Virus record (IMG/VR): IMGVR_UViG_3300005836_000012
From: a virus
Length of the DNA: 64,000 nt
Reading direction: 5' to 3' (one strand)
The notes beneath the pieces were generated by a model. It had not been told where the DNA came from, did not search any database, and saw only the letters and a list, made by a program, of their open reading frames with translations. A program made the position numbers and the translations under genes. Numbering within the stretch: the first letter of the stretch is position 1; each line of letters starts with the position of its first letter. Below are positions 8,631 to 62,481 of this stretch, piece by piece.

Positions 8631-10157
8631 ATGAACGACAAAGTCTCTGCCGAAACGCTGAACCTGATCAAGGCGGCCCAGCTGTCCGGCACCAGCGAGG
8701 TCCCGCCCGAACTGATGAAGGCCTGGACCCAACCAGGCAGTGCGGTCAGCGGCATCAATGCCTACGACCTGGAAGCGCCAGCCAAGCAGCTCTATCCGGT
8801 CATCACGCCGCTGCGCAACGAGCTTCCGCGCGTCTCTGGCAAGGGCGGCATTCAGGCCAACTGGCGAGCGATCACCGGCATCAACACCACGAACCTCGCG
8901 CTGTACCTTGCGACCGGCAAGCGTGGTGGCGTGATGACGACCACGACCCAGGACTACACGGCGGCCTACAAAGGCATCGGCCTGGAGGATTCGGTCGAGT
9001 TCGAAGCCGACTATGCGGCGGAGTTCTTTCAGGACCTGAAAGCCACCGCAGTCGAGGGCCTGCTTCGCGCCACGATGATCGGCGAGGAGAAGATCATTCT
9101 GGGCGGCAACAACGGGCTGTCGCTGGCCAACACGGGGTCGATCACCCTGACCACGGCCAACACGGGCGGCACGCTGAACAACCAGTCCTACGGAGTCGGC
9201 TGCGTCGCGCTCACGTTCGAGGGCTTCCAACTCGCAAGCCTGACGACCGGCATTGTCCAGTCCTACACCCGGACGAACGCCGACAGTTCCACCGACCTGA
9301 TCAACGGCGGCACCAACCTGAAGGCCACCCAGGCCAACGTGACGGTGAACACCCAGGCCGGCACGATCAGCGCATCGGTGACCCCGATCGCAGGCGCTGT
9401 GGCGTACGCGTGGTTCTGGGGCGCCGCCGCCGCCAACTTGACGCTCGGAGCGATTACCACGATCAGCAGCGCACTGATCACGGCCAACGCGACCGGCACC
9501 GGGGCTGGCAACGGCACGGCGAACTACGCCGCGCTCGGCGCGACGAACAACAGCACGAACTCGCTGGCGTTCGACGGCTTTCTGACCATCGCGAGCCAGT
9601 CCGCGCTCGGTTCGTACCAGGGCACGCTGGCCGTTGGCGTCCCGGGCACGGGAACCGCACTGACCAGCGACGGCGCGGGCGGCGTCGCAGAAATCGAGAC
9701 GGCGCTGAAGTCCTTCTGGGACAACTACCGCTTGTCCCCCGATACGCTCTGGGTGTCGGCGCAGGAAATGAAGAACATTTCCGCCAAGGTGGTGTCAGCA
9801 TCCGCGTCCAACCCGCTGGCGCTGCGCTTCACGGTGAACGCCGACCAGAGCATGATGGCCGGCGGCATCATCGTGCGCGAGTACCTGAATCGCTACGCGA
9901 TGGACGGCAACACGGTGCTGAAGATCAGGCTGCACCCGAACATGCCGGCTGGCACGATGCTGTTCACCACGAGTCGGCTGCCCTACCCGCTGTCGAACGT
10001 GACGAACGTGGCGCAGATCAGGACGCGGCGCGACTACTACCAGATCGAATGGCCGCTGCGCACTCGGAAGTACGAATACGGCGTCTACGCCGACGAGGTG
10101 CTGCAGCACTACTTCCCGCCGGCGATCGGGGTGGTCACCAACATCGCCAACGGCTGA
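8631..10157 (+). CDS. Major capsid protein (HK97-fold type)
   Basis: 508 aa after protease-scaffold, strong RBS GAGGAGAG. LYPVITPLRNELPRV..ANW block typical of capsid proteins. Followed by a terminator-like hairpin. Confidence 0.75.
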   Translation: MNDKVSAETLNLIKAAQLSGTSEVPPELMKAWTQPGSAVSGINAYDLEAPAKQLYPVITPLRNELPRVSGKGGIQANWRAITGINTTNLALYLATGKRGGVMTTTTQDYTAAYKGIGLEDSVEFEADYAAEFFQDLKATAVEGLLRATMIGEEKIILGGNNGLSLANTGSITLTTANTGGTLNNQSYGVGCVALTFEGFQLASLTTGIVQSYTRTNADSSTDLINGGTNLKATQANVTVNTQAGTISASVTPIAGAVAYAWFWGAAAANLTLGAITTISSALITANATGTGAGNGTANYAALGATNNSTNSLAFDGFLTIASQSALGSYQGTLAVGVPGTGTALTSDGAGGVAEIETALKSFWDNYRLSPDTLWVSAQEMKNISAKVVSASASNPLALRFTVNADQSMMAGGIIVREYLNRYAMDGNTVLKIRLHPNMPAGTMLFTTSRLPYPLSNVTNVAQIRTRRDYYQIEWPLRTRKYEYGVYADEVLQHYFPPAIGVVTNIANG

Positions 10158-38929: not shown

Positions 38930-39318
38930 AGATGCCGGCCATGCTGGTCCCCATCACCGCCAACCAGGCGCACGTCCTGCGCATGCTGGTCGAGACGATG
39001 ACGCCGCAGACCCACCCCGGGCTGGAGGTGGTCGACTTCGAGGATGCCTGGGCCATCCACGCAGCCCTAGCAACAGCCAAACCCATGACATCGGAGCACG
39101 AAATGACAGACCCCCGCGGGTACAAGCTGACCCCGAAACAGCCCGGCTTGCCGGTTCGGTACTTCGCCGCCACGCATCGATCGCAGCCCATGGCTCGCAT
39201 CGCTGAATCCCTCTACGAGTGCGAGGTGATGGGCCACGCGGACTACATGAAGGCCATCGCTGACGGCGTGAAGATCGAGGACGTGAAGACGAATGGACCC
39301 GGGCCAGTACAACCTTGA
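38926..39318 (+). CDS. Hypothetical protein
   Basis: 130 aa from ATG 38926 (ATGA overlap). Confidence 0.45.
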   Translation: MKMPAMLVPITANQAHVLRMLVETMTPQTHPGLEVVDFEDAWAIHAALATAKPMTSEHEMTDPRGYKLTPKQPGLPVRYFAATHRSQPMARIAESLYECEVMGHADYMKAIADGVKIEDVKTNGPGPVQP

Positions 39319-39874
39319 CATCAGGGCTGCGGCCCTCCTGTCGCTGATCGATGACGGCAGGCCAATGGTCGGCGTCGAGGTGGGCGTCTACCGAGGCGAC
39401 CTGTCAGCCGCGCTGCTACACGCGCGCCCGCAGTTGTGCATGCTCTTGGTCGATTCCTGGGGCGATCCAGATCGGGGCAGCCCCTACTATCAAACCGGCG
39501 ACCATCACGCATCGATGACCACAGCAGAGCAAGAGGCGGCGCGCCAGCTCTGCATGTCCAACATCGAACGATTCGGCTACCGCGCTGTGACCCGCCACAT
39601 GAAATCGGCAGAGGCAGCGCTTCGGCTATCTGATCGAAGCGTGGACTTCGTCTTCCTCGACGCGGATCATTCGTTCGAGGGCGTGACGGAAGACCTGAAC
39701 CTGTGGCTGCCGAAGATCAAAGACGGCGGCTGGATCGGAGGCCACGACTACGCGAACCCGGCACTGCCTGACACCAAAGTCAAGGAAGCGGTGGATGCGT
39801 TCTTCGGTGAACCGCCACGGCTGCTAGACGACATGGTGTGGGTGATGCCCGCCCCATTCTTTGCTGCAAAGTAG
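39293..39874 (+). CDS. Class I SAM-dependent methyltransferase (Methyltransf_24-like)
   Basis: VGVEVGVYRGDLS (motif I) and DFVFLDADHSFEGV...GGWIGGHDY. Confidence 0.6.
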   Translation: MDPGQYNLDIRAAALLSLIDDGRPMVGVEVGVYRGDLSAALLHARPQLCMLLVDSWGDPDRGSPYYQTGDHHASMTTAEQEAARQLCMSNIERFGYRAVTRHMKSAEAALRLSDRSVDFVFLDADHSFEGVTEDLNLWLPKIKDGGWIGGHDYANPALPDTKVKEAVDAFFGEPPRLLDDMVWVMPAPFFAAK

Positions 39875-41984: not shown

Positions 41985-42014
41985 CGACTTCTCCTGTTGG
42001 TTTTCCATGTGCGT

Positions 42015-42043
42015 ATTGTGTGCCCGCACAGATTAATTGTCAA
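42015..42043 (-). promoter_or_regulatory. Leftward promoter (TTGACA-N17-CACAAT) for the AAA+ gene
   Basis: Minus strand: TTGACA (42043-42038), 17 nt, CACAAT (42020-42015), then 6 nt before ATG 42008. Confidence 0.5.
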
Positions 42044-44509: not shown

Positions 44510-44592
44510 AGCTGCGACACCGGCTGTGGATCATCCTGGCTTTGGTTGAGGGCGCCGCTGGCGTATTCTTCTTTCTGCGCGTGTTCCTGTGA
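44506..44592 (+). CDS. 28-aa single-helix peptide
   Basis: MKLRHRLWIILALVEGAAGVFFFLRVFL. ATGA and GTGA overlaps at both ends. Confidence 0.35.
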   Translation: MKLRHRLWIILALVEGAAGVFFFLRVFL

Positions 44593-45191
44593 GAGTCACG
44601 CTGCTGGGCGCCGGCGCACTCGGGCGCGAGTTCTACGAGTGGATTCGCTGCAATCCGGTGGTCGAGGTGCGGTTCGCCGATGACGTGCTGAAGGGCAGTC
44701 GCATCATCACGAGCGACGGTCCGACGACGGTGCTCGACCCTGCCGAGATTCCAGCGACCGAGCTGATGCTGGTCACGATCGCCGACCCGGTGAAGCGGGC
44801 GGCTGCGGTTGCTGCGCGTCCGACGCAGTCCTGGGCCACCTCGACCACATCCCCGAGCGTTCACGCATTTGACAGCCGCTGGGACGACGGCACGATGCAG
44901 GCCCCCTTCACTCTCGTGAGCGTCAACGCGAAGATCGGGAAGCACTGCATCATCGGCGCGTACAGCAGCGTCGGGCACGATGTCGTCATCGGCGACTTCT
45001 GCACGCTGTCCAGCCATGTCGATCTGTGCGGCCGCGTGAAGCTCGGCCAGCGCGTGTTCCTCGGGAGCGGCGCGCGCGTGCTGCCTGGGGTGGCGGTCGC
45101 TGATGACTGCTACATCGGCGCCGGCAGCGTGGTGGTGGTCGATGCCATGGTGCGCGGCACCTACTTCGGCGTGCCAGCGAGGCGCATGTGA
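44589..45191 (+). CDS. NeuD/PglD-family sugar N-acyltransferase (left-handed beta-helix)
   Basis: N-terminal Rossmann-like VTLLGAGALGRE. C-terminal hexapeptide repeats IGKHCIIGAYSSVGHDVVIGDFCTLSSHVDLCGRVKLGQRVFLGSGARVLPGVAV. Confidence 0.7.
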   Translation: MRVTLLGAGALGREFYEWIRCNPVVEVRFADDVLKGSRIITSDGPTTVLDPAEIPATELMLVTIADPVKRAAAVAARPTQSWATSTTSPSVHAFDSRWDDGTMQAPFTLVSVNAKIGKHCIIGAYSSVGHDVVIGDFCTLSSHVDLCGRVKLGQRVFLGSGARVLPGVAVADDCYIGAGSVVVVDAMVRGTYFGVPARRM

Positions 45192-45346
45192 ACCGCTGGC
45201 ATTTCTGGTTGTTCTGTAGCGGCAGCGGGTGTGCGGCTTACACCGTTGCCTGGCTGCTGAACCACATCGGCGCGCCGCCCAGCGTAGTGTTAGAGGGCGC
45301 CTGGGCTGTCGTCGTTCTTCTAGCGCTCTGGGAGAACAAGCAATGA
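45188..45346 (+). CDS. 52-aa two-helix membrane peptide (unlisted, weak)
   Basis: GTG 45188 overlaps the NeuD-like stop, and TGA 45344-45346 overlaps the Rieske ATG (ATGA). However GC3 is low. Confidence 0.3.
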   Translation: MNRWHFWLFCSGSGCAAYTVAWLLNHIGAPPSVVLEGAWAVVVLLALWENKQ

Positions 45347-46242
45347 TCCACCAAGGTCGACCTGCCATGATCCACCTGATCGGCAACGCCAGCGAGCTGG
45401 CCAACGAGGGCGACTACATCCGCCTGCCCATCGGAATCGATGACGTGGTGGTGATGCGCGAGGCCGGCGAACTGGTCGCCTTCGACAACGTTTGCACGCA
45501 CCGCGGCGCCCGCATCCATGAAGGGCTTGTCGGCAACCGCGAGCCGGTGTGCCGATACCACGGGCGCCGCGCGCGCGCCGACTGCGTGAACCGATACCAG
45601 ATCATCGTGGCCGGCTACTGGCTGTTCGTGAAGGTCGGCGGCGAGCCGGACGACGACACCGAGTTCATCGGCGACCCGACGCGAGCGATAGACGCGCTGC
45701 TGAACATCGGCCCGCTGGAGCGCGTGGCGATGCACACCCAGTTCTACGGCTCGCCGTGGACGATCGCTGTCGAGAACGCGCTCGACTGGACCCACGTCAG
45801 CACCGTTCACCCCGGAAGCCTCGGGCGCATGGGCATCAAGCCAATCGGGGGATGCCCAGGGCCGTCCGGCAGCAGCGTCGAGTTGTTCCGCGCCGATAAT
45901 CGCGCGCTGGCCAGACTGGCGCCAGACAACCCGCTGCCCTGTGACTACGTGCACCTCTACCTTGCCCCATACGCCTGCGTCAGCAGCACCCGAGGGCTCA
46001 CGGTGAGCGTGCAGCACTACCTACCAGCCGGCCCGCACCTGACGCGCTTCGTGACCCGCCTGTATGCCAAGCCGGGCACTCCGCGTGGCCTGGCAACCCA
46101 GGTGCACAAGCTGAACACCCAGGTATTCGACGAAGACGCGGCCGTGTGCGCGAGCGTGCACCCCGAGTTCATCGGCAAAGGCCCGCTGTCGGCTCAGGAG
46201 TGGCGCATCCAGGCGTTCCGCAACGTGTGGACGCCCCGGTGA
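45343..46242 (+). CDS. Rieske [2Fe-2S] non-haem-iron oxygenase (alpha-subunit-like)
   Basis: CTHRGARI...CRYHG Rieske ligands. ENALDWTHVSTVH gives the D-x2-H-x4-H mononuclear iron site. GGGAGA upstream of ATG 45343. Confidence 0.75.
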   Translation: MIHQGRPAMIHLIGNASELANEGDYIRLPIGIDDVVVMREAGELVAFDNVCTHRGARIHEGLVGNREPVCRYHGRRARADCVNRYQIIVAGYWLFVKVGGEPDDDTEFIGDPTRAIDALLNIGPLERVAMHTQFYGSPWTIAVENALDWTHVSTVHPGSLGRMGIKPIGGCPGPSGSSVELFRADNRALARLAPDNPLPCDYVHLYLAPYACVSSTRGLTVSVQHYLPAGPHLTRFVTRLYAKPGTPRGLATQVHKLNTQVFDEDAAVCASVHPEFIGKGPLSAQEWRIQAFRNVWTPR

Positions 46243-46571
46243 GGCTGATCGCCCCGCTCCACGACCTGGTGGTGACGGCCCCGCGCCGCGCCGACAAGCC
46301 GAACAGCCCGCACCGCGCCAGCACCGTGATGTCCGGCAGCGCCTGGGTGTGGCTGGAGGATCAAACGGTGGACGACCTGATCCGTGTGCACGGCCGAAAG
46401 TCGCTGTGCGACGTGACGCCAAACTACGTGTCGATGGTCTGGGGCAGCCCGCCGCCGCAGCGAATCTCCACGCTTCGGATCATCGACTGCCCGACCTGCC
46501 AAGCGGGCCAGGCCAAACGGATGACAACCTGCCCCATGTGCGGGGGCGCGACCAGGGTGCTGAACATATGA
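46239..46571 (+). CDS. Hypothetical protein with C-terminal CxxC-x12-CxxCGG zinc ribbon
   Basis: 110 aa, GTGA overlap. IIDCPTCQAGQAKRMTTCPMCGGATRV. Confidence 0.45.
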   Translation: MRLIAPLHDLVVTAPRRADKPNSPHRASTVMSGSAWVWLEDQTVDDLIRVHGRKSLCDVTPNYVSMVWGSPPPQRISTLRIIDCPTCQAGQAKRMTTCPMCGGATRVLNI

Positions 46572-47647
46572 CGATCCGCGTGCTGATCCCGAAGATGCCC
46601 AGCCCGGACGAGCTGCACCACTACTTATCGCGCATGCACGCCCGCCGCGTCTACGTGAACGGCGGGCCGCTCGTCAGCGAGTTGGAGGAGCGCATCCGAT
46701 CGATCATCGGCGTCGAGTGCCGCATGGTGTCAACCGGCACCTCGGCGATTCAGCTGGCGCTCCAGGCGCTGCACCTGCCGCCGAACAGCCGCGTCGCCGT
46801 CCCCGCGGCCACCTTCTCAGGCACCGGGCTGGCGATCAGGGCCGCAGGCCACCTTCCGGTGCTGTGCGACGTTGATGCCCAGAGCTGGCACCTGCAGCCC
46901 AGCGACGTACCTGCCGCCTGCGCGGCCGCGGTTCCTGTCGCGGCATTCGGCATGCCGGTGAACATCGGGCCGTGGGTGGCCTGGGCTGATGCGATGAACA
47001 AGCCGGTCGTGGTTGATGCCGCTGGAGCGCTCCTGGATCAACCTACCTGCGACAGCCCGCTGGTGCTGTTCGCCTTCAGCCTGCATGCCACCAAGTTCAT
47101 CGGAGCCGGCGAGGGGGGATGCGTCGCGGGGGCCTCGCGCTGGCTGCTGGATCGAGTCGCGGACCTGTCGCGCTTCGGCATGGTCGGCGGGACGAATGCC
47201 AAGATGTCGGAGTACCACGCGGCCGTAGCCCACGCCAGCCTGGACAGCGCCGACACGCGCTGCGAGCACATGCGGATGACGCGGCATCGGTATCACAGCC
47301 GGCTGCTCAAGCGGATTCCAGGCATCCAGTTCCAGCGCCCACCGATCGAACTGCTGTGGCGAGGGGCGGCGTCCCTGATGCCGATCCTGCTGCCAGAGGA
47401 CCGCCCGGCCATGCCCACGATGCACGCGCTGGAGCGCGTCGGGGTCGAGACGCGGCAGTGGTACAGGCCGTTCCTGAATGAGCGGCCAGACATGCCAGTG
47501 AGCCCGAGCGCGCGCCGTTTCGGCGACGACATGCCGGTCACCATGACGCTGATCGAGCGCCTGATCGGCCTGCCGTTCCACTACTTCCTGACGCTCGACG
47601 ACATCGACGCCGTCTGTCATCACCTGGAAACGATATGCGCATCCTGA
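46568..47647 (+). CDS. DegT/DnrJ/EryC1/StrS-family PLP sugar aminotransferase
   Basis: 359 aa from ATG 46568 (ATGA overlap). FAFSLHATKFIGAGEGG carries the PLP-lysine context. Fold-type I layout. Confidence 0.75.
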   Translation: MTIRVLIPKMPSPDELHHYLSRMHARRVYVNGGPLVSELEERIRSIIGVECRMVSTGTSAIQLALQALHLPPNSRVAVPAATFSGTGLAIRAAGHLPVLCDVDAQSWHLQPSDVPAACAAAVPVAAFGMPVNIGPWVAWADAMNKPVVVDAAGALLDQPTCDSPLVLFAFSLHATKFIGAGEGGCVAGASRWLLDRVADLSRFGMVGGTNAKMSEYHAAVAHASLDSADTRCEHMRMTRHRYHSRLLKRIPGIQFQRPPIELLWRGAASLMPILLPEDRPAMPTMHALERVGVETRQWYRPFLNERPDMPVSPSARRFGDDMPVTMTLIERLIGLPFHYFLTLDDIDAVCHHLETICAS

Positions 47648-48624
47648 TCACGGGTGGCTGTGGCTTCCTAGGGGGCCATCTGATCGAGGCCGCGATCGCC
47701 GCGGGGCACTACGTCGAGACGATCGACAGCATCACCTACGCCGGCAACATGCAGAACCTGCCATGGAGGTTTCAGGGCTACCGCAACGCCGACGTGTGCG
47801 ATCGCACGCTGATCGATGCCACGCTCCAGCGGGTTCGGCCGGACTGGGTGATCCACGCCGCGGCGGAGACGCACGTCGGGAGAGCGGTCAATGATGCGGA
47901 GGTCTTCCTGCAGACCAACGTCATCGGCACGCACGTGATGCTGGAGGCCTCGCTGTCGTACTGGCGGGAGATTGAGCACAGCCCCACGTTCCGCTTCCTG
48001 TACGTCAGCACGGACGAGGTGCACGGGAGCCTGGGGTTCAACGACCCGCGCTGGACCGAGGATAGTCCGATCGCCCCGAACAACCAGTACAGCGCGAGCA
48101 AGGCGGCCGGGGATCATCTGTGCCGCGCCTACTGGGTGACGCAGCGGCTTCCAGTGATCGTGACGCACTGCGGCAACAACTACGGCACCCGCCAGCACCC
48201 GGAGAAGCTGATCCCGACGCTGATCGGTCAGTGCCTCGCAGGTCGGCCGATGACGCTGCACGGGGATGGACAGCACGTCCGAGACTGGATCGCCGTCGAG
48301 GACCACTGCTCTGGCCTGCTGGCCGCCTGCGAGCGCGGGAATCCTGGCGAAACCTACGCGTTCAGCGCCGGCCAGGAACTGCGCAACGTGGAGGTGGCGA
48401 AGACCATCGGCGGCGTGTTCGGGGCGGCGACGATCGAGCTGATCGCGGAGCGCGCGGGGAACGATCGCCGCTACGCACTGGACTGCAGCGCGACGCGGGC
48501 AGCGCTCGGCTGGCATCCCCGGCGCAACCTGCTGCTGGAAGTCAATCGGCTGGTGCAATGGCACAGGGCGGTGGGCGAGAAGTTCGCCGCCGACTACGGG
48601 GTAGGTGCGCGGAGGTTTGGATGA
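47635..48624 (+). CDS. rfbB: dTDP-glucose 4,6-dehydratase-like NDP-sugar dehydratase
   Basis: ILITGGCGFLGGH, YVSTDEVHGS, YSASKAAGDHL (YxxxK), NNYGTRQHPEKLIP, GDGQHVRDWIAVEDHC. Confidence 0.8.
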   Translation: MRILITGGCGFLGGHLIEAAIAAGHYVETIDSITYAGNMQNLPWRFQGYRNADVCDRTLIDATLQRVRPDWVIHAAAETHVGRAVNDAEVFLQTNVIGTHVMLEASLSYWREIEHSPTFRFLYVSTDEVHGSLGFNDPRWTEDSPIAPNNQYSASKAAGDHLCRAYWVTQRLPVIVTHCGNNYGTRQHPEKLIPTLIGQCLAGRPMTLHGDGQHVRDWIAVEDHCSGLLAACERGNPGETYAFSAGQELRNVEVAKTIGGVFGAATIELIAERAGNDRRYALDCSATRAALGWHPRRNLLLEVNRLVQWHRAVGEKFAADYGVGARRFG

Positions 48625-50576
48625 CCGAGACGGTGGTGCCAGCGAAGGAGGCCGCGAACCGGCCGACCTTGCCGCAGATTCAAATCCAGAACATCGACCT
48701 GCCGGAAATCGAGCGAGCCGTCTACGGAAGACAGCACGAGGAGGCCTGCAAGCTGTTCGTCGCGGCGCTGCAGCGGCTGAAGATGGGGGCCGGCTTCACC
48801 ACGCTGCCGATGACAGTCGAGGCGCTGAAGATAGGCTACACCCGCATGGCGTCGGCCATGGTTGCCATGCTGGCGGACCCGAACATGGGCTTGGGCTCTG
48901 AGGGCTTCGACATCTTCGGAGCCGAGCACGCGATCACGGACACCATGTTCCGGGCCAGCGCCTACGGCACCAGCGACTTCCTGCTCGCGATCCTTGGGAA
49001 CCGGCTCGACGCGCAGCAGAGCGGCAACAACCAGCCGGGATTCAGGGCCGCAGCTCAACAGGCGGTGAAGTTCATGGTCACGCACAGCCTGGCCAGTGCG
49101 CTGGACCTGGATCACGAACAGATTTTCAAGCAAGACCCCAAGTCGTTCTTCGGCCTGTGGTGCGGCATGCTCGCCCCGCTGCTGGTGCTGACCGAGGCAG
49201 CGACGGCGCGGCGCGAAAAGTTGCTCGGGCTGGGCTACGTCTTCGAAGGCGTCGCCGTCCGCCAGCTGATGCTGCCCAGCGTCAGCGACGCGTTCATGTA
49301 CGCCAGCTACGCCACCAGACCCGACAAGCACAAGGCGAAGGCCGCGATCATCGCGGCGATGCGCCGCGGGATGCTTGGCGCCGGCGTCGAGGAACCGAAG
49401 CCGGAAGTCATCGCCGCGCGCCGCCTGGTGCGCCACCACCGTCCGACGATCCTGGTGTGCGTCGAGTGGTTCGGCGGGCAGCATGCCATGTATCGCTGCT
49501 ACTGCCTGATCATCCGCCAACTCCGCAAGCGCTACCGCCTCGTGGCGATGTCCAGGGCGATCGACATCGACGAAATCGGCAAGGCGGAGTTCGACGAGTG
49601 GCACGAGGTGCCGGCGGAAAACCTGGCCCTCGGCGACCTGGTCAAGCGCGTGGCCGACATCGCCCCGGACATGATCTATCACCCGTCGCTGGGGATGGCG
49701 ATGTGGTGGGTGGCGCTTTCCTCGCTTCGGCTGGCCCCGATCCAGTTCGCCACGCTCGGGCACCCGGCCTCGTCGATGTCTCCGACCATGGACTACATCC
49801 TGTGCGACGAGGGAGCGTTCGGCGATCCAACCCTCGCGGTCGAGCGGATCGTCACCTATCCGAACGGCAGCGCCCGCTACGTCCTGCGGACTGACGAGGA
49901 CGTGCCGCCGCCTTTGCCAGTCAGCGAGGTGTCAGCCGACCCGATCAACATCGCGATCCCGGCCATGATGTGCAAGGTCACCGTTCCATTCCTCAAGGCT
50001 TGCAAGCTGGTCAGCGAGCAGGCTGGGCGCTCCGTGCGTTGGCACTTCTTCATCAACATGCTCGGCCTGAACCTGATCGCTGCCGCGGCGGAATTGAGGG
50101 CGTGGCTGCCGGACTGCCTCACCTACGAGCGGAACACGTACAAAGGCTACATGGACGCCCTGCGGCATTGCCACATCGTCGCGAGCACGTTTCCATTCGG
50201 GGGGACCAACTCCATCATCGACAGCATGATGGTCGGCGTCCCGCCGGTGTGCATCGAGGGCCAGGAACCGCACGAGCGCTTCGACGCAGCCATCATCCGC
50301 AGGGCGCAGCTTCCTGACTGGCTGATCGCCAACGATGTCGAGGGCTGGATCGCGGCCATGGTCCGGCTGATCAAGGAGGACGGCACGCGCAACGCGATCC
50401 GCGATCACCTCCTGACCTTCGACCTGAAGGGCGAGTTCTATGGTCCATCCGAGCACGGCGACGCCTTCGCGCGCGCGGTGGACCTGATCTTCGACAACCA
50501 CGAGGCGATCCAGGCGTTGCCGGATCGCGCGCCGATCGATAGCACCATGTGGAGCGCGCCATGTTCGTCAAGCTGA
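48621..50576 (+). CDS. GT41-family (OGT / HMW1C-like) glycosyltransferase
   Basis: 651 aa, GGAGG RBS. Helical N-domain. APDMIYHPSLGM..LRLAPIQFATLGHPASSMSPTMDYILCDE and CHIVASTFPFGGTNSIIDSMMVGVPPVCIEG match GT41 catalytic blocks. Confidence 0.65.
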   Translation: MTETVVPAKEAANRPTLPQIQIQNIDLPEIERAVYGRQHEEACKLFVAALQRLKMGAGFTTLPMTVEALKIGYTRMASAMVAMLADPNMGLGSEGFDIFGAEHAITDTMFRASAYGTSDFLLAILGNRLDAQQSGNNQPGFRAAAQQAVKFMVTHSLASALDLDHEQIFKQDPKSFFGLWCGMLAPLLVLTEAATARREKLLGLGYVFEGVAVRQLMLPSVSDAFMYASYATRPDKHKAKAAIIAAMRRGMLGAGVEEPKPEVIAARRLVRHHRPTILVCVEWFGGQHAMYRCYCLIIRQLRKRYRLVAMSRAIDIDEIGKAEFDEWHEVPAENLALGDLVKRVADIAPDMIYHPSLGMAMWWVALSSLRLAPIQFATLGHPASSMSPTMDYILCDEGAFGDPTLAVERIVTYPNGSARYVLRTDEDVPPPLPVSEVSADPINIAIPAMMCKVTVPFLKACKLVSEQAGRSVRWHFFINMLGLNLIAAAAELRAWLPDCLTYERNTYKGYMDALRHCHIVASTFPFGGTNSIIDSMMVGVPPVCIEGQEPHERFDAAIIRRAQLPDWLIANDVEGWIAAMVRLIKEDGTRNAIRDHLLTFDLKGEFYGPSEHGDAFARAVDLIFDNHEAIQALPDRAPIDSTMWSAPCSSS

Positions 50577-50815
50577 CTTCTGTGCCAGTCAAGAACCTTG
50601 ACGATGGCGCCTTGCATGCGATGTACGTCGAGGCTGCCGATGTGGCGGCGATCAGTCGCGGCATCCTAAACACTGTCCCGGCAGAGGGTTGCACGATGGT
50701 GCTGATCATGCGGGACGGCGGCGTGGCAACGCTTGCCGTCAGCGAATCGCCAGGCGTTGTGGCCAAGATGGTGGAGGACGCGCTGGCGCGCGCCGTCCAG
50801 ATGCCGCGGCCATGA
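50561..50815 (+). CDS. Hypothetical small protein
   Basis: 84 aa (ATG 50561, alternative GTG 50549). Confidence 0.45.
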   Translation: MFVKLTSVPVKNLDDGALHAMYVEAADVAAISRGILNTVPAEGCTMVLIMRDGGVATLAVSESPGVVAKMVEDALARAVQMPRP

Positions 50816-51303
50816 TCTACGAACTGGAGCTATACCGCCGGACGCGCACCGCCGCGCCCGACCTGCCGACCGACATCCCGGCATCGACGCTGCTGCGCAA
50901 GGAAATGCGCGAGGCCAGCGATGGGCTGATGTTCTTCGCCCTGCACCGCCAGTCGGTTGTCGCCGTTGCAACGCACGCTGCGAACGTCATCCTGCAGATG
51001 GCCCGCACGCTTGACGCCACGGGAGAAACACCAGGGGTTCCTGATCTGGTCAACGGAGCCTGCACGCTGATCCAGGAGGTGCGCGACCGCATGGACCGCG
51101 CCCTGCTGCTGAACGACGGCGAGCAGCTGCGCTGGTCGACCTGCATGCTGGAAATCCAGGTGCGCGGCATCCTGGCCATCCTGGTCGGCACCGTGCCCTA
51201 CACCACCCTGATGGAGACGATCGCCGAGCGCGGCGACCTTCACGCCATCCTGACCGCCTGCGGCGCGCTGCCGCCAACCCAAACCACCGAGACACCCCAA
51301 TGA
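50812..51303 (+). CDS. Hypothetical helical protein
   Basis: 163 aa, ATGA overlap. Confidence 0.5.
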   Translation: MIYELELYRRTRTAAPDLPTDIPASTLLRKEMREASDGLMFFALHRQSVVAVATHAANVILQMARTLDATGETPGVPDLVNGACTLIQEVRDRMDRALLLNDGEQLRWSTCMLEIQVRGILAILVGTVPYTTLMETIAERGDLHAILTACGALPPTQTTETPQ

Positions 51304-51518
51304 TGGACCGCGAGAAGTTCCTGCACACCCTGTCGGCGATCGTGGAGCACGCGCCGCTGACAGCCGAAACCCAACTGGCATCCACCGGCCTATGGGATTC
51401 CATGGCCTGGGTGCAGGTGATCGGAATGCTCGATGACTGCGGCATCGAGGCGAACGGCGAGCAGGTCAGCAAATGCGAGACGGCCGCCGACGTGCTGAAG
51501 CTGGCGAGGCTGGGATGA
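51300..51518 (+). CDS. Acyl/peptidyl carrier protein (phosphopantetheine-binding)
   Basis: 72 aa. LASTGLWDSMAWVQVIGMLDD has the carrier-protein DS(L/M) Ser context in helix II. Confidence 0.6.
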   Translation: MMDREKFLHTLSAIVEHAPLTAETQLASTGLWDSMAWVQVIGMLDDCGIEANGEQVSKCETAADVLKLARLG

Positions 51519-51856
51519 AGCGCCTGCGAGCCGTCGCGCTGTGGCTGTTCTGGCGCTTCGGGTTTGGCCTGCTGCTCTACATGGCCTTGGCTCACGGTAG
51601 CGATGGCGCGGCGAACTTCGCCAAGTTCTACGTCTGGATGGTCGCCGTCCTTCTGTTGCTGGTCGCCATCGGCATGCTTGCTGACATCGATTTGTCGAAC
51701 AAGCCGTCCGTCATACCGCTGTGGCTGAATGTCGCAGTCGACACGGTTGCCTTCTGCGTCATGCTGTGGTTCGGCTGGATCGCCACGGCTGCGGCGTACC
51801 TGTTTTCAATAGTGATCGCTGCGGCCGCGCAGCGCCGCATGGGAGCGAAAGAATGA
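51515..51856 (+). CDS. Integral membrane protein (about 4 TM)
   Basis: 113 aa from ATG 51515 (ATGA overlap). Long hydrophobic segments. Confidence 0.55.
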   Translation: MKRLRAVALWLFWRFGFGLLLYMALAHGSDGAANFAKFYVWMVAVLLLLVAIGMLADIDLSNKPSVIPLWLNVAVDTVAFCVMLWFGWIATAAAYLFSIVIAAAAQRRMGAKE

Positions 51857-52824
51857 ACCGCCGCGAACGTCTGAACGCCACCATCCGCGGCGTGGTCGCG
51901 GTGATCCCTCCGAACGGCGTGAACAACGAGGAACTGGACGCGCTGCACGGCAACGACTTCGCCACGAAGTCAGCCGGGATCACCGGCGTGCTGCGGCGCC
52001 ACAGAACCGCTCCCGAGGCCTCGATGCCGACCGAGTTCGCCTGCGCGGCCGCGGCGCGCCGGCTGATGGTGAACCTCGGATGGGACGCGAGCAGCATCAA
52101 CGCGCTGGTGTTCGTCACGCAGACCCCGGGGGTGGAAATGCCCAGCGGCGCACACGCGATCCACGAGGCGCTCGGGCTTCCCGCCAACTGCGTCCCGGTG
52201 CAGGTGAACTGGGCCTGCGCAGGTTTCGTCTATGGCCTGTGGCTCGGCGCCCTGCTGGGCGGCGGGGACCGCACGCAGCGCATCCTGGTGCTGGCCGGCG
52301 ACACGATCACGCGGCGCTGCGACCCGAACGACAGGGCTACCTCGGCTGTCTTCGGGGACGCCGCGAGCGCCACGGCGATCGAGGTCGGATCGAATCAGGG
52401 CGCCATGCGCTTCGTCCTGGGCACCGACCCGGAGGGATGGCACAAGCTGTCCATGGCTGACGGCAAGCCGATGACGATGGACGGGACGGCCGTCTTCAAC
52501 TTCACGCTGCGCCGCGTTCCTGCCCTGCTCTCGGACGTGCGCGAGGCCGGCGTGCCGGACCTGTGGCTGTTCCACCAGGCCAACGCCTTCATGCTCGACC
52601 ACATCGTGCGCAAGGCCGGGATTCACCCCTCCGTGGCCCCCACGAACCTACAGGTGCGCGGCAACACCAGCAGCGCATCCATCCCCCTCCTGATGTGCGA
52701 CATGGGCCGTCAGGCGCTGCGCGGCAAGCGCGTGGCCATGGTCGGCTTCGGCGCCGGCTGGACCTGGGGGGCTGTCAACGTCGAATTGCACGGCCTGGAC
52801 TGTGCGGAGGTGATCGAGCTATGA
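51853..52824 (+). CDS. KAS III (FabH)-family 3-oxoacyl-ACP synthase / acyltransferase
   Basis: Cys-His-Asn triad contexts NWACAGFVYG, LFHQANAFM, RGNTSSASIP. 323 aa, ATGA overlap. Confidence 0.75.
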   Translation: MNRRERLNATIRGVVAVIPPNGVNNEELDALHGNDFATKSAGITGVLRRHRTAPEASMPTEFACAAAARRLMVNLGWDASSINALVFVTQTPGVEMPSGAHAIHEALGLPANCVPVQVNWACAGFVYGLWLGALLGGGDRTQRILVLAGDTITRRCDPNDRATSAVFGDAASATAIEVGSNQGAMRFVLGTDPEGWHKLSMADGKPMTMDGTAVFNFTLRRVPALLSDVREAGVPDLWLFHQANAFMLDHIVRKAGIHPSVAPTNLQVRGNTSSASIPLLMCDMGRQALRGKRVAMVGFGAGWTWGAVNVELHGLDCAEVIEL

Positions 52825-53525
52825 CGGCCAGGTATCTGGTGACCGGCGCCTACGGTGGGCTGGGCGCGGAGGTCTGCAAGCGGCTGCGCGCGCAGGGCGC
52901 GGAGGTTCACGGCATGGTGCGCGCTGTCGGCGGGCCTGATGTCGATCTGTACGGCTACCACCAGATGGACTTCAGCCACGCCACGCCATCCCAAGTGGCG
53001 ACCGCCGTTCTGAAGATCGCATCCGCCTTCGACGGTGTGGTTCACACTGCTGGCTCCGAGGTGGTGCACCCGCTGGTCGGGCATCAAGACGCCCAATACA
53101 ACCGCGCCATGGCCGCAGCGCACAGCGCCTTCGGCATCCTCATGGCTGCAGCTGAAGGCGCCGTGATGAAGGGCGGCAGCATCGTCATGATGTCCAGCGT
53201 GGCCGCGCATCGCGGGGTGGCCGGCATGGTGGCCTACAGCGCCGGCAAGGCGGCGATCGAGGCCATGGTGCGGAGCGGCGCGCTGGAGCTGAAGCGCCGC
53301 AGCATCCGGGTCAACTGCGTGGCCGCTGGCGCCTTCCGCAGTCCGATGCACGACCGCATCACCCGCGGCATGAACGAGGCCAGCCAGGACGCCTACGCCC
53401 AGAAGCACCCGATGGGCATCGGCGCCCTGTCGCACGTGGCCGACGCCGTGATGAACCTGCTTCAAGGCGCGAGCTGGCAGACCGGCAGCACGGTGGTGGT
53501 CGATGGCGGATTCTTGGCGGGATGA
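52821..53525 (+). CDS. Short-chain dehydrogenase/reductase (FabG-like)
   Basis: VTGAYGGLGAEV (TGxxxGxG), SSVAA...YSAGKAA (S...YxxxK). 234 aa. Confidence 0.75.
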   Translation: MTARYLVTGAYGGLGAEVCKRLRAQGAEVHGMVRAVGGPDVDLYGYHQMDFSHATPSQVATAVLKIASAFDGVVHTAGSEVVHPLVGHQDAQYNRAMAAAHSAFGILMAAAEGAVMKGGSIVMMSSVAAHRGVAGMVAYSAGKAAIEAMVRSGALELKRRSIRVNCVAAGAFRSPMHDRITRGMNEASQDAYAQKHPMGIGALSHVADAVMNLLQGASWQTGSTVVVDGGFLAG

Positions 53526-54780: not shown

Positions 54781-55029
54781 ATGCGTATTTACCCGATGGA
54801 CGATTGCCACGACTGGGATGTCTGGCACTGCCGCCGATGCGTCGAGCCGCGCGACATCCTGTGGATTGACAGCGAGTCGTGCCGCTGGGCGCAGTTCCAA
54901 CACGCCGAGTACGACGGGGTCGAGCTGGTGGTGCACCAGGCGGACCGCATCCACATCTTCGACCAGCGTCGGCTGGTGCTGATCGACCCGGTGGCCACAG
55001 CCGAACCATCCCGTGTCAGTCGTCGCTGA
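54781..55029 (+). CDS. Hypothetical small protein between TerS and TerL
   Basis: 82 aa from ATG 54781. Cys/His/Trp-rich N-terminus. Confidence 0.45.
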   Translation: MRIYPMDDCHDWDVWHCRRCVEPRDILWIDSESCRWAQFQHAEYDGVELVVHQADRIHIFDQRRLVLIDPVATAEPSRVSRR

Positions 55030-56518
55030 CCAGCGCGTCCCGTCCGAGCTGGCAAGCCGGGGGGAGTGGGGGCGCCGGTCGTTCCGCTACTTCTTCCGCC
55101 ACTTCGCGTGGCCCGTGCTGTACCCAGGGGTGGAGTTCGTCGACGGCTGGCACATCGACGCGGTGTGCGAGCACCTGGAGGCACTGAAGCGGGGGCAGAT
55201 AAGGCGGCTGGCCATCAACATGCCGGGCCGGCACCTCAAGTCATCCCTTGTCAGCCAGGCCTTCAACGCCTGGGACTGGATCGCCGACCCGCAGCTGACG
55301 CACCTGACGGCCAGCTACGTCACGGCGCTGGCGGTGCGCGACGCGGTGGGAACGCGGCGCATCATCCAGTCGAAGCTGTACCAGGACTGCTACGGCGGCC
55401 GATTCGCGCTCCAGCCCGACCAGAACGAGAAGACGATGTACGCCAACACCCGCGGCGGCTACCGGCGCCCGGTCGGGGTCGACGCCGGCATCATGGGCTA
55501 CGGGGGCAACCGGCGGACGGTCGACGACCCGGTGGACCCAGCTGCTGTATCCAACGCCGGCGCGATCGAGCGCGGTGTGGAGTGGTGGAAGGGCACGTTC
55601 AGCACGCGGGGGAACGATCCGCTGAACGACACGATCATCCTGGCCCAGCAGCGCCTGAGCGACGGCGACACCACCGGCTACGTGATGAAGAACGAGCGCG
55701 GCTGGGAGTACCTGGTGATCCCGGCGCGCTACGAGCACGAGCACCGCCGCCCGCCGACCATCATCGGATGGGTGGACCCGCGCAAGAAGGAACGCGAGGT
55801 GATACAGCCATCCCGGCTGCCCGACAGCGCGGTCGCGGAACTGGAAGCCAACCTTGGCGAGTACCACCGGCTCGCCCAGCTCCAGCAGCGCCCGACGAAC
55901 CGCGGCGGGATCATCTTCCCGCGCAGCCACTACCGCTTCTGGACGAAGGCGACGCTGCCCAAGATCGACTACGTGGCGCTGTCGGTCGACTGCACCTTCA
56001 AGGACGGCCCCACCAACGACCATGTGGCGATCCAGGCGTGGGGCTTCGCGCTCTCGCACAGCCAGAACATCCTGCTGCACCGCGTCAAGGAGCGCATGTC
56101 CTTCGCGGCGACCTGCGATTCCGTCAAGTCGGTCTATGCACTGTTCGAGCAGCTGTGCATAGCGGTGCTGATCGAGGACAAGGCCAACGGCAGCGCGGTG
56201 GTCGAAACCCTCGCGGGGACGGTTCCTGGTGTGGTTGCGGTCAACCCGGAGGGCGGCAAGGCGGCCCGGGCCTTCGCCATGCAGGCCGACCACGAGGCGC
56301 ACTGCATCGTCCTCCCGGCCCCGGAGGAAGACCCGAAGATCGAGGTCTTCCTGGTCGCCAGTTCGGCGTTCACCGGCCTGGAAGGCGGCGACGATGACGA
56401 GGTGGACGCCATGACGCAGTTCGTGAACTGGAAGCGCGTGCGGTTCAAGACCACCGGCCTGCAGCAGCTGATGAAGGCGCAGTACGAGGCGGCGCAGGCA
56501 GCGAAGGCGGCCGCCTGA
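55013..56518 (+). CDS. terL: Terminase large subunit
   Basis: RRLAINMPGRHLKSSL (PxRxGKS-type Walker A variant). C-terminal nuclease block ALSVDCTFKDGPTNDHVAIQAWGF. 501 aa. Confidence 0.8.
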   Translation: MSVVADQRVPSELASRGEWGRRSFRYFFRHFAWPVLYPGVEFVDGWHIDAVCEHLEALKRGQIRRLAINMPGRHLKSSLVSQAFNAWDWIADPQLTHLTASYVTALAVRDAVGTRRIIQSKLYQDCYGGRFALQPDQNEKTMYANTRGGYRRPVGVDAGIMGYGGNRRTVDDPVDPAAVSNAGAIERGVEWWKGTFSTRGNDPLNDTIILAQQRLSDGDTTGYVMKNERGWEYLVIPARYEHEHRRPPTIIGWVDPRKKEREVIQPSRLPDSAVAELEANLGEYHRLAQLQQRPTNRGGIIFPRSHYRFWTKATLPKIDYVALSVDCTFKDGPTNDHVAIQAWGFALSHSQNILLHRVKERMSFAATCDSVKSVYALFEQLCIAVLIEDKANGSAVVETLAGTVPGVVAVNPEGGKAARAFAMQADHEAHCIVLPAPEEDPKIEVFLVASSAFTGLEGGDDDEVDAMTQFVNWKRVRFKTTGLQQLMKAQYEAAQAAKAAA

Positions 56519-59323: not shown

Positions 59324-59347
59324 GGCTGAAAGGGCGGCGGTGATTCG

Positions 59348-61518: not shown

Positions 61519-61531
61519 AAAGGAGCACCAC

Positions 61532-62265: not shown

Positions 62266-62267
62266 AC

Positions 62268-62477: not shown

Positions 62478-62481
62478 TGCG

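Follow-up and report, generated by a model that had tools for sequence, protein, structure and literature searches.

A phage operon predicted to couple an N-acylated amino-dideoxy sugar pathway to an HMW1C-type asparagine glycosyltransferase

A single operon, carried within a 64-kb stretch of viral DNA (hereafter the window, meaning the whole stretch that was analysed), is read here with moderate confidence, from its predicted proteins, as a phage-borne and self-contained cytoplasmic N-glycosylation module for which virion proteins would be the most likely acceptors. If true, the phage particle would bear a glycan coat. The sugar made by the operon is probably of a known kind, since five of its genes match the viosamine island of Pseudomonas syringae and an RmlB-type enzyme would give the 4-keto precursor; the novel part of the operon is the transferase rather than the sugar.

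The preliminary description of this DNA had reported a co-directional, mostly overlapping set of ORFs at 44589-53525, and checking of the coordinates confirms 13 ORFs on the plus strand that fill this interval, with 4-nt start/stop overlaps at nine of the junctions. GC3 in the operon is 0.75-0.87, compared to about 0.5 at codon position 2, and both its GC content and its GC3 match the remainder of the genome. Directly downstream, and in the same direction, lie the terminase, portal and head genes. The ORFs are as follows.

44589..45191, plus strand: hexapeptide N-acyltransferase of NeuD/PglD/VioB type, 200 aa (Pfam Hexapep, 3.5e-17)
45188..45346, plus strand: doubtful 52-aa ORF with one hydrophobic segment and 4-nt overlaps on both sides
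45343..46242, plus strand: Rieske non-haem-iron oxygenase, alpha-type subunit, 299 aa (Pfam Rieske, 8e-12)
46329..46571, plus strand: small Zn-ribbon protein, by motif (CPxC...CPxC)
46568..47647, plus strand: PLP-dependent sugar 4-aminotransferase of DegT/DesI/VioA type, 359 aa (Pfam DegT_DnrJ_EryC1, 2e-41)
47635..48624, plus strand: NDP-glucose 4,6-dehydratase of RmlB type, 329 aa (Pfam GDP_Man_Dehyd, 5e-56)
48621..50576, plus strand: HMW1C-like (GT41) cytoplasmic Asn N-glycosyltransferase (NGT) with a variant donor pocket, 651 aa
50561..50815, plus strand: window-specific ORF of 84-88 aa
50812..51303, plus strand: 163-aa helical protein, remote MazG-like relative of all-alpha NTP-pyrophosphohydrolases
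51300..51518, plus strand: dedicated acyl carrier protein (ACP), 72 aa, with WDS34M (profile match to ACPs)
51515..51856, plus strand: 113-aa protein with four hydrophobic segments (hydropathy scan), accessory candidate
51853..52824, plus strand: KAS III (FabH-like) condensing enzyme, VioS analogue, 323 aa (Pfam ACP_syn_III domains)
52821..53525, plus strand: FabG-like short-chain 3-oxoacyl reductase, VioR analogue, 234 aa (adh_short_C2, 4e-30)

All family calls previously made for these ORFs survive profile searches against Pfam, NCBIfam and PDB, and the quoted motifs (SLHATK, STDEV, YSASK, YSAGK, WDSM and the KAS III Cys-His-Asn triad) are present. The acyltransferase matches VioB (7txp) over its full length at 3e-17 and PglD at 6e-17, scores 136 bits against the NeuD/PglB/VioB model TIGR03570 (cutoff 161), and aligns its His130 with the PglD histidine that we take to be the active-site residue. 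For the aminotransferase, whose PLP lysine lies within SLHATK176, the top PDB match is DesI (2po3, 2e-22) and the top NCBIfam match is TIGR04427, dTDP-4-dehydro-6-deoxyglucose aminotransferase. The dehydratase matches RmlB (1bxk) at 3e-73 and carries GGCGFLG, STDEV and YSASK, scoring 314 bits against TIGR01181 (cutoff 365). Among the acyl-supply genes, the KAS III protein matches ACP_syn_III and ACP_syn_III_C at 1e-15 to 1e-19 and 4efi at 1e-59, with Cys122, His241 and Asn271 in place, and the reductase, with motifs TGAYGGLG and Y139SAGK, additionally matches KR (1.5e-11) and, below cutoff, the 3-oxoacyl-ACP reductase model TIGR01830 (1e-24). The carrier protein alone has no Pfam match; when it is combined with seven phage homologues, the resulting profile matches only ACPs in PDB (best 6e-5), with its invariant serine aligned to the DSL serine, and the earlier carrier call is borne out through this eight-sequence profile.

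These families support the chemistry proposed before, in which a 4,6-dehydratase, a C4 aminotransferase and NeuD/VioB-type N-acylation are joined to KAS III, ACP and ketoreductase for a 3-hydroxyacyl unit. The RmlB-type protein would convert host NDP-glucose, its presumed substrate, to NDP-4-keto-6-deoxyglucose, on a nucleotide carrier that by homology would be dTDP; UDP is also possible, because the Mimivirus counterparts accept both UDP- and dTDP-sugars (PMC9614988). The DesI/VioA-type aminotransferase would then yield NDP-4-amino-4,6-dideoxyglucose (viosamine), C4 being the default amino position since the operon has no 3,4-ketoisomerase. Meanwhile, KAS III may condense acetyl-CoA with malonyl-ACP on the phage-encoded ACP, primed by a host PPTase and malonylated by host FabD, after which the FabG-like reductase would yield the 3-hydroxybutanoyl form; acyl transfer to N4 by the VioB-type enzyme could come before or after this reduction. 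Such a route would parallel the dTDP-mVio pathway of P. syringae, which has been characterised genetically. In crude six-frame motif scans the window showed no motif of an RmlA-type nucleotidyltransferase, a PPTase or FabD, in line with the earlier claim. By its co-occurrence, the Rieske oxygenase may, with a host reductase, further oxidise the acyl side chain. The structure of the custom sugar is in this way more strongly supported than was thought, and its novelty is reduced, the gene set being that of the known P. syringae island.

The transferase is, by its sequence, an HMW1C-type Asn N-glycosyltransferase that retains the peptide-sequon residues. Over residues 27-613 it matches the solved NGT 8p0o at 2e-62 and ApNGT (3q3e) at 5e-56. 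It scores 28.9 bits against Pfam HMW1C_N (1e-6, cutoff 27), and against the NCBIfam NGT equivalog it reaches only 250 bits (cutoff 1000). Experiments on ApNGT assign reading of the +2 Ser/Thr to D215 and M218, and activation of Asn to Y222 and H371 (PMC10466321); equivalents of all four are kept in the window NGT and across the entire phage clade. The window protein retains D223-A-F-M226, Y230, H381, K452, N530 and D534, and its N479-M480 occupy the positions of ApNGT G468-Q469; throughout the phage NGTs, a clade-specific N-M takes the place of the donor-pocket Q469. The original call of a GT41/HMW1C-like transferase is sharpened, and the retained sequon residues favour protein targets over the envelope glycans that had also been suggested. 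No NGT homologue was found among 50,697 deposited phage genomes and no phage system combining these parts in the searched literature, in agreement with the preliminary description. The NGT would accept the acylated amino-sugar NDP donor, rather than UDP-glucose, and glycosylate Asn of N-x-S/T sequons in the cytoplasm.

Many related phage contigs share this gene order, which supports coupling of the NGT to amino-sugar genes. The cassette, in full or minimal form, recurs across dozens of related siphophages from metagenomes, and some bacterial chromosomes have it too; the minimal form, syntenic in the siphophage contigs, consists of the acyltransferase, DegT, RmlB, NGT and 163-aa protein genes. 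At loci with enough flank, the acyltransferase is found in 14 of 16 and DegT in 13 of 16, and 39 of 66 loci in bacterial genomes have DegT no more than 8 kb from the NGT homologue. Many cassettes lack RmlB, which leaves some latitude as to the substrate of the aminotransferase. The NGT is the sole glycosyltransferase in each variant seen. In every phage seen, the cassette has late or structural genes as its neighbours, and in related phages it adjoins the tail-tip gene.

The accessory ORFs vary in their conservation. The Rieske protein, with weak VanA_C and Ring_hydroxyl_A matches, carries C51-x-H...C70-x-x-H and E144-x3-D-x2-H-x4-H; its gene invariably follows the acyltransferase, and KAS III is also present at all six such loci. 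The Zn-ribbon protein has no significant Pfam match, and the ribbon ORF ends exactly at the DegT start at five related loci (L001, L004, L072, L074 and L091), with or without Rieske. Of two proteins formerly listed as unknowns, the 84-88-aa one has no Pfam or PHROG match and no homologue at related loci. The other, of 163 aa, appears from profile and model to be a remote MazG-like protein: a 52-sequence profile of its family matches DR2231 at 4e-5, its model is a helical bundle (pLDDT 82) and Foldseek gives weak matches to MazG/HisE. This family comprises about 125 clusters, all stand-alone, and its gene adjoins NGT at 9 of 16 well-covered loci; it may be a nucleotide-handling or NGT-associated helper. 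The four hydrophobic segments of the 113-aa protein agree with the earlier 4-TM call. This protein and the 52-aa ORF have no sequence homologue at related loci. By hydropathy scan, L001 and L003 have soluble ORFs at the 4-TM position, and in L004 the place of the 52-aa ORF is taken by a hydrophobic one of 48 aa. Both the 4-TM and the 52-aa ORF are non-conserved and probably lie outside the core cassette.

The likeliest acceptors would be exposed, co-produced virion proteins (capsid, connector, tail tube and tail tip), with the capsid protein as the main candidate.

8631..10157, plus strand: major capsid protein, candidate acceptor with candidate sites N269-L-T and N456-V-T (phrog_13692, 8e-128)

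It has 10 N-x-S/T sequons, compared to 3 in the 53%-identical capsids of NGT-less Brevundimonas phages. Capsids of NGT-bearing phages hold 8-10 (n = 9), against 3-7 in NGT-less long contigs and complete genomes (n = 8), and the means are 8.8 for the former and 4.6 for NGT-less long contigs. N269-L-T occurs in 17 of 17 proteins of the NGT-bearing clade and N456-V-T/S in 16 of 17 (15 NVT, one NVS; NVA in L114), both positions being variable outside it; the NGT-bearing phage L128/L088 has neither. Relative to the NGT-less phage Strzyga, sequons number 10 vs 3 in the capsid, 5 vs 0 in the connector, 3 vs 0 in the tube and 7 vs 2 in the tail tip, with no gain in the portal, protease and head-morphogenesis proteins. 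However, this enrichment is confounded by phylogeny and composition. Shared ancestry may explain the fixed sequons, given that the NGT-bearing capsids also group together phylogenetically. Nor is the enrichment motif-specific, since [ST]-x-N, the motif in reverse, increases equally, and no window protein is significantly enriched over shuffles after multiple testing.

This confounding leaves room for the same chemistry acting on host proteins (flagellin, pilins, adhesins, outer-membrane or cytoplasmic proteins), for superinfection block, receptor change or host takeover as in lysogenic conversion, a reading we consider unlikely. It draws on the known viosamine pathway, which decorates flagellin (PMC3927599), on an integrase encoded by the relative L001, and on bacterial chromosomal homologues: DegT-NGT-acyltransferase triads without phage genes in two betaproteobacterial MAGs (L007, L019), and a full set in Roseateles (L049), where pseudopilin-like genes lie alongside, as does the gene of a secreted protein that contains 12 sequons. 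Against host targets, the window ORFs examined include no integrase, the operon is grouped with late and structural genes, and the sequon gains fall in exposed virion proteins. In the HMW1C paradigm, moreover, enzyme and acceptor are paired in one genetic element. More doubtful still is an NGT that works as a conventional UDP-glucose:Asn glucosyltransferase, with the amino-sugar extending Asn-glucose or feeding host LPS or capsule glycosyltransferases. The canonical nucleotide-binding and catalytic residues are all conserved, a second NGT activity could extend glucose just as HMW1C makes hexose-hexose bonds, and the cassettes lacking RmlB fit this reading, as do dTDP-sugars, which are typical O-antigen precursors. 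Yet the Q469-equivalent residue is altered clade-wide, no variant has a second glycosyltransferase, Gtr-type or membrane glycosyltransferases and a flippase are absent, and the linkage of DegT and acyltransferase to NGT is kept even in minimal three-gene bacterial islets.

Hypermodification of DNA, with the cassette supplying or attaching the amino-sugar to 5-hydroxymethyl-pyrimidines, seems very improbable. Its basis is a module of 5-hmdU DNA kinase (HMUDK_hel), thymidylate-synthase-like and YfbR-like nucleotidase genes directly upstream of DegT-RmlB-NGT, in the same direction, in L178 and L077, together with the MazG-like fold of the conserved 163-aa partner, common in phage nucleotide metabolism, and known DNA-glycosylating phage glycosyltransferases (bioRxiv 10.1101/2023.12.21.572611). 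That source, however, names no GT41, aminotransferase or dehydratase; HMUDK and thymidylate-synthase genes occur at only 2 of 16 well-covered loci and have no homologue in the window by tblastn; the bacterial chromosomal loci have no DNA-modification genes; and the residues that read the peptide sequon and activate Asn are strictly retained. Finally, it is hardly credible that a bacterial glycosylation island entered the phage contig by mis-assembly, or rides in it as a passive passenger, and plays no part in the phage: the contig is metagenomic and all genes have bacterial homologues, but the base composition equals that of the remaining genome, the ORFs are intact and overlapping, and the cassette recurs, with homologous phage genes flanking it, on numerous phage contigs that are independent and come from different samples.

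Compared with the HMW1C, ApNGT, Kingella and Aggregatibacter NGTs (3q3e, 8j30, 8p0o), the phage enzyme shares over its full length the all-alpha domain and GT-B fold, and also the DxxM sequon motif, the Asn-activating Tyr/His and the nucleotide-site Lys/Asn/Asp. It differs in its identity of about 25-30%, far under the equivalog cutoff, in a donor pocket reading FHFF-x-N-M instead of FHFALGQ, and in being tied to amino-sugar genes, not to an adhesin/TPS operon. Known enzymes use UDP-Glc or UDP-Gal; to our knowledge all characterised NGTs use UDP-hexoses, and we know of none that accepts a dTDP-sugar or an N-acyl-amino-dideoxy sugar.

In mycobacteriophages, glycosylation reportedly also modifies tail-tube proteins, and the virion glycans are, as far as we know, not Asn-linked. 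Virion glycosylation in Che8 and Rita (Freeman et al. 2023, cited in PMC11256854) resembles the module proposed here in that phage-encoded glycosyltransferases modify capsid proteins to form a glycan shield; that system belongs to actinobacteriophages and to unrelated glycosyltransferase families, and is not known to include a sugar operon of this type or an NGT. Mimivirus decorates its capsid fibrils through the viosamine pathway R141/L136/N-L142 (PMC9614988), a viral 4,6-dehydratase, 4-aminotransferase and N-acyltransferase likewise producing N-acyl-viosamine for its own particle, whereas it is a eukaryote-infecting giant virus with an acetyl-only acyl group and other transferase families.

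The closest enzyme set is the viosamine island of P. syringae pv. tabaci (vioA, vioB, vioS, vioR, acp, vioM, vioT), which supplies the flagellin glycan dTDP-N-(3-hydroxy-1-oxobutyl)-2-O-methylviosamine; vioA, vioB, vioS, vioR and acp make dTDP-N-(3-hydroxy-1-oxobutyl)viosamine, as mass spectrometry of mutants supports (PMC3927599). The orfA-E genes of P. aeruginosa PAK are related to this island. Compared at the level of their enzyme sets, both have a DegT-type 4-aminotransferase, a VioB/PglD-type N-acyltransferase of ~200 aa, KAS III, a 3-oxoacyl reductase and an ACP of ~70 aa, acting on the RmlB product. The operon described here is phage-borne, has no methyltransferase, and adds the Rieske oxygenase, Zn-ribbon and MazG-like proteins. 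Above all, an HMW1C-type Asn N-glycosyltransferase stands in place of VioT/OrfN, so that the linkage would be N-, not O-.

The window, which takes up almost the whole of a metagenomic contig of 64,114 bp, is a tailed-phage genome with a GC content of ~65%, and its head genes continue past the window end, round to its start.

Principal features of the window and ORFs of the sugar cassette
2113-3624, 503-aa protein with N-terminal InPase (polyvalent-protein type) and C-terminal Zeta-toxin kinase, adjoining the head-morphogenesis gene
3872-4810 and 40431-42029, both - strand and opposite to their neighbours, DUF4942 protein and AAA+ ATPase
6918-8588, protease/scaffold
8631-10157, capsid
10556-11362, connector
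12323-13060, tube
13747-16605, tape measure
16602-21194, RcGTA-like tail genes and tail-tip gene, the latter at 18297-21194
27340-27621, - strand, HTH_3 Cro/CI-type regulator
44589-45191, + strand, N-acyltransferase
45343-46242, + strand, Rieske oxygenase
46329-46571, + strand, small Zn-ribbon protein
46568-47647, + strand, DegT aminotransferase
47635-48624, + strand, RmlB-type 4,6-dehydratase
48621-50576, + strand, 651-aa HMW1C-like transferase
50812-51303, + strand, 163-aa protein
51300-51518, + strand, carrier protein
51853-52824, + strand, KAS III
52821-53525, + strand, SDR
55013-56518, terminase
56734-58473, portal
59348-60784, Apiosidase-like glycoside hydrolase with a Collagen_bind_2 domain, one of four genes in 58850-63189

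The cassette at 44589-53525 consists of 13 co-directional ORFs with a 4-nt overlap at nine start/stop junctions and a coding-type GC3 of 0.75-0.87; it ends ~0.7 kb upstream of a small-terminase candidate and runs the same way as the late genes. On re-reading of this stretch, every ORF, coordinate and motif quoted in the preliminary description proved right. Its statement that nucleotidyltransferase, PPTase and malonyl transferase genes are missing agrees with motif scans of the window, which were negative for the first two and for FabD, and the operon holds no cognate reductase for the oxygenase, again as described, nor a ferredoxin. Cassette ORFs of unknown family gave no match in PHROGs. Three ORFs, of 52 aa, of 84 aa and with 4 TM segments, lack conservation in related loci, and for that reason the 4-TM and 52-aa ORFs were rejected as core parts.

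The enzymes assigned to sugar synthesis were recovered by profile and structure searches in the families first proposed for them. The acyltransferase belongs to Hexapep (3.5e-17), with VioB (7txp) as its best PDB match over the full length (3e-17) and PglD also matched, and it scores 136 bits against TIGR03570 (NeuD/PglB/VioB), just below the cutoff of 161. The aminotransferase matches DegT at 2e-41; its best characterised relatives are DesI (2po3, 2e-22) and the DesI NCBIfam model TIGR04427, and it has the character of a VioA-type C4 aminotransferase that would act on the product of RmlB, whose gene adjoins it and matches 1bxk at 3e-73. No ketoisomerase was found among the operon ORFs. The KAS III (4efi, 1e-59) has its Cys, His and Asn intact, and the SDR is FabG-like (adh_short_C2, 4e-30). 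As a single query the carrier protein gave no match; a profile that joins it to seven phage homologues matches only ACPs (6e-5), the invariant WDS serine aligning on the DSL serine of ACPs. By homology the nucleotide carrier would be dTDP.

The 651-aa protein had been called a GT41-type transferase, and here the family stands while the assignment can be refined, as the protein is not merely GT41-like and aligns with the cytoplasmic Asn N-glycosyltransferases (NGTs). Residues 27-613 align with the solved NGTs 8p0o (1.8e-62), 3q3e (ApNGT, 4.9e-56) and 8j30 (3e-55), the homology spanning the all-alpha domain and the GT-B part, and the score of 28.9 bits for Pfam HMW1C_N exceeds the cutoff of 27. 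With 250.6 bits against the NCBIfam equivalog NF049992, far below the trusted cutoff of 1000, it is a homologue and not an equivalog. In the DVYM motif of ApNGT, D215 and M218 read the +2 Ser/Thr, while Y222 and H371 activate Asn and K441 is a nucleotide-site residue (PMC10466321). The window counterparts are D223-A-F-M226, Y230 and H381, and the phage-clade homologues all read DA[YF]M...SY and GHP. Kawai and colleagues are said to have assigned N521, D525 and H277 of ApNGT to the nucleotide site in 2011. K452, N530, D534 and H288 of the window enzyme align with the nucleotide-site residues and are invariant across 90+ homologous loci, and D223, M226, Y230, H381, K452, N530 and D534 show little or no variation among 36 close homologues. 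In more distant bacterial homologues the catalytic residues persist, the sequon-reading Asp being replaced. Transfer to the Asn of N-x-S/T sequons is predicted from these residues. The donor pocket departs from the glucose-specific one, having N479-M480 where ApNGT has G468-Q469, and FHFF-x-N-M replaces FHFALGQ throughout the phage clade as a clade-specific feature. Q469 of ApNGT is the position where mutation widens the donor range. The implied donor of the window NGT is a non-hexose one.

Virion N-glycosylation is the reading that we tentatively prefer. Its boldest form, possible rather than probable in our judgement, is that this would be the first phage-encoded Asn-linked (N-) protein glycosylation, carried out by a new NGT subfamily whose donor would be an NDP-4-(hydroxyacyl)amido-4,6-dideoxyhexose and not UDP-glucose, that capsid and tail would receive a coat of an unusual acylated amino-sugar, and that the subfamily, as yet uncharacterised and with DegT and acyltransferase genes linked to it, would be common across Proteobacteria and other phyla. 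Whatever is said here of function past family membership is what we infer.

The distribution of the cassette bears on its coherence as a unit. The nearest NGT homologues are betaproteobacterial. Close homologues of the NGT number ~69 at 40-63% identity, most of them on 40-68-kb contigs with homologous RcGTA-like tail genes; the homologue set comprised 23 IMG/VR loci and 66 genome loci, those of IMG/VR being recovered by an alignment-based scan after a single-protein scan had given none. The conserved order is acyltransferase, [Rieske], small Zn-ribbon, DegT, [RmlB], NGT, small ORFs, 163-aa protein and [ACP, small ORF, KAS III, SDR], bracketed genes being variable, and its minimal variant (L004) has acyltransferase, DegT, RmlB, NGT and a 161-aa protein. 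RmlB is lacking from the cassettes of L006, L072, L073, L081 and L177. Among 16 loci with enough flank, the acyltransferase occurs in 14, DegT in 13, the 163-aa family in nine, RmlB and KAS/SDR in seven each, and Rieske in six. The cassette adjoins the tail-tip gene in most relatives and precedes the packaging genes in the window and in L072, and because its position thus differs it behaves as a mobile module. In L177 the cassette has an Acb2_Tad1_hairpin gene (anti-CBASS/Thoeris sponge-like; 6828-7055) inserted between KAS III and SDR. In 39 of the 66 genome loci, the NGT homologue has a DegT gene no more than 8 kb away. DegT-NGT-acyltransferase triads with 41-42% NGT identity were found in two betaproteobacterial MAGs (L007, 8810-12500; L019, 8824-12750), between tol-pal/queC and spoT-rpoZ-gmk and with no phage genes nearby, and a chromosomal cluster of Roseateles asaccharophilus (L049, 8081-17982) reads NGT-DegT-KAS-KAS-SDR-AT-Rieske, AT being the acyltransferase. 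Next to this last cluster lie pseudopilin-like genes and the gene of a ~470-aa protein that has a signal peptide and 12 N-x-S/T sequons and is a possible natural acceptor.

Evidence on the acceptor in the phage was sought in the sequons themselves. Sequon enrichment against shuffles was significant for none of the window proteins after multiple testing, and the reversed motif is as frequent in them as the forward sequon; since no protein stands out, we claim no statistically proven acceptor. Among cultured phages, the closest relatives by capsid infect Brevundimonas. The window capsid has 10 N-x-S/T sequons against three in the 53%-identical capsids of Strzyga and Polewnik, two Brevundimonas phages that lack an NGT. 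IMG/VR capsids on NGT-bearing contigs have 8-10 (mean 8.8, n=9) against 3-7 (mean 4.6, n=8) on NGT-less long contigs or complete genomes, a comparison in which the NGT-bearing set is a phylogenetic clade and Asn/Ser/Thr richness also rises generally. N269-L-T is invariant in a 17-member capsid clade containing eight of the nine NGT-associated capsids, and N456-V-T/S is kept in 16 of its members (one as NVS; that of L114 has NVA). Outside the clade both sites vary, the +2 position of N456 being G/A/S/N/Q/P; the NGT-bearing phage L128 is without both fixed sequons. Relative to Strzyga, sequons are gained in the connector (5 vs 0), tube (3 vs 0) and tail tip (7 vs 2), and not in the portal, protease or head-morphogenesis proteins. 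These signals are suggestive of a virion acceptor, not conclusive.

The alternative that the NGT glycosylates host proteins we regard as unlikely, though it deserves attention. That the enzyme is a plain glucosyltransferase and the amino-sugar is used elsewhere seems to us decidedly unlikely, given the changed donor pocket and the lack of a second transferase, the NGT being the sole glycosyltransferase in every cassette variant seen. DNA hypermodification as the purpose of the cassette finds its argument in two relatives (L178, 3441-6970; L077, 4159-7529), where DegT-RmlB-NGT is directly preceded, in the same direction, by a 5-hmdU module that consists of HMUDK_hel, a YfbR-like HD nucleotidase and a thymidylate-synthase-like gene. 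The window nevertheless lacks this module, as do 14 of 16 well-covered loci, tblastn for dUMP hydroxymethylase and 5-HMUDK found no homologue in the window and located them only in L077 and L178, and the peptide-reading residues of the NGT are conserved, making this reading very improbable. Mis-assembly is graded unlikely, and of all these explanations we give it the least weight.

Turning to the remaining members of the cassette, the Rieske/mononuclear-iron oxygenase first described is upheld by Pfam (Rieske, 8e-12) and by two intact motifs, C51-T-H53...C70-R-Y-H73 for the 2Fe-2S ligands and E144-NAL-D-WT-H-VSTV-H for the mononuclear iron. It is present only alongside KAS III (six of six loci), which suggests that it works on the acyl chain. 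In L003 a PhyH-family Fe/2OG dioxygenase directly follows the NGT (3983-4663) and the locus shows no Rieske gene, a hint that the sugar or acyl group is tailored by oxygenases that can stand in for one another; this contig breaks off just before DegT, leaving the acyltransferase/Rieske position outside coverage. The small Zn-ribbon ORF repeatedly occupies the place just before DegT, in cassettes that have Rieske and in others that lack it; because of the latter, its role as redox partner of the oxygenase was rejected as a strict rule. The 163-aa family (~125 clusters, all stand-alone) is modelled from an alignment as a helical bundle with pLDDT 82, a single-sequence AlphaFold model having been discarded at pLDDT 55. 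Foldseek gave no significant match, with weak resemblance to MazG/HisE (E >= 0.36, TM-scores 0.35-0.6), and a 52-sequence profile matches the MazG-like NTP pyrophosphohydrolase DR2231 over ~75 residues (4e-5), the first acidic motif (R-E-x-x-D) being kept and the second (E-x-x-D) lost. The protein may act as a helper, either in nucleotide handling or in association with the NGT; as a glycan acceptor it was rejected, its family having no conserved N-x-S/T.

Several features elsewhere in the window may be recorded here. Four genes at 58850-63189 separate the portal from the head-morphogenesis gene; besides the Apiosidase-like hydrolase, they comprise three Asn/Ser/Thr-rich ORFs with no family match, one of which (60781-61518) has six sequons against 2.6 expected, and the group is a possible module for head decoration or of depolymerase type. 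A gene homologous to the AAA+ ATPase is present in Strzyga. GC falls to 0.586 at 26000-28000, and an integrase sought among the low-GC ORFs of 26-31 kb was not found, only the HTH regulator, RusA and a DUF1376 protein; the relative L001 carries a tyrosine integrase.

Should the preferred reading of virion N-glycosylation be true, phages of Gram-negative hosts would be able to use rare sugars of bacterial type to shield their particles or to retarget them, and a soluble single-enzyme N-glycosylation system would travel with its own sugar factory. This would matter for receptor binding, for phage therapy and for resistance to antibodies and to proteases of host or environment. NGTs are prized glycoengineering tools limited to glucose, and a natural clade of them in which the donor pocket is rebuilt and amino-sugar genes are linked would enlarge the choice of sugars installable on cytoplasmic Asn. 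The survey also flags an uncharacterised NGT-DegT pair in bacteria. To our knowledge, virion glycosylation is documented only in a few actinobacteriophages and giant viruses, in none via an NGT. The preliminary description knew of no phage system combining these parts, and the searches bear it out: among 50,697 deposited phage genomes there was neither near-identical DNA nor a tblastn match to the NGT, and the literature on phage NGTs, NGT-aminotransferase clusters and Rieske enzymes in glycosylation islands yielded nothing relevant.

Taken singly, neither the sugar pathway nor the enzyme family is new, and the kind of sugar proposed is known too; we could find no precedent for the combination of pathway and NGT, for its carriage by a phage or for the implied non-hexose donor of an NGT. 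4-(3-Hydroxybutanoylamino)-4,6-dideoxyglucose is borne by the flagellin of Burkholderia cenocepacia, with FlmQ as flagellin glycosyltransferase. The same moiety occurs in Pseudomonas syringae pv. tabaci, where mutant mass spectrometry of the viosamine island supports dTDP-N-(3-hydroxy-1-oxobutyl)-2-O-methylviosamine for the flagellin glycan (PMC3927599). That island has the same five genes as the window (aminotransferase, VioB-type acyltransferase, KAS III, 3-oxoacyl reductase and small ACP), the last three encoding 323, 234 and 72 aa in the window and 338, 253 and 69 aa in Pta 6605, whereas its VioM 2-O-methyltransferase and VioT/OrfN transferase have no counterpart in the window operon. An unlinked Methyltransf_24 methyltransferase lies 5 kb upstream of the cassette (39293-39874) and could be a sugar O-methyltransferase analogous to VioM or unrelated. 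In Mimivirus, a dehydratase, an aminotransferase and an acetyltransferase make Vio4NAc for the fibrils, accepting both UDP- and dTDP-sugars (PMC9614988). From the parallels with the viosamine island and Mimivirus, the N-(hydroxy)acyl 4-amino-4,6-dideoxyhexose originally proposed as the product is well founded.
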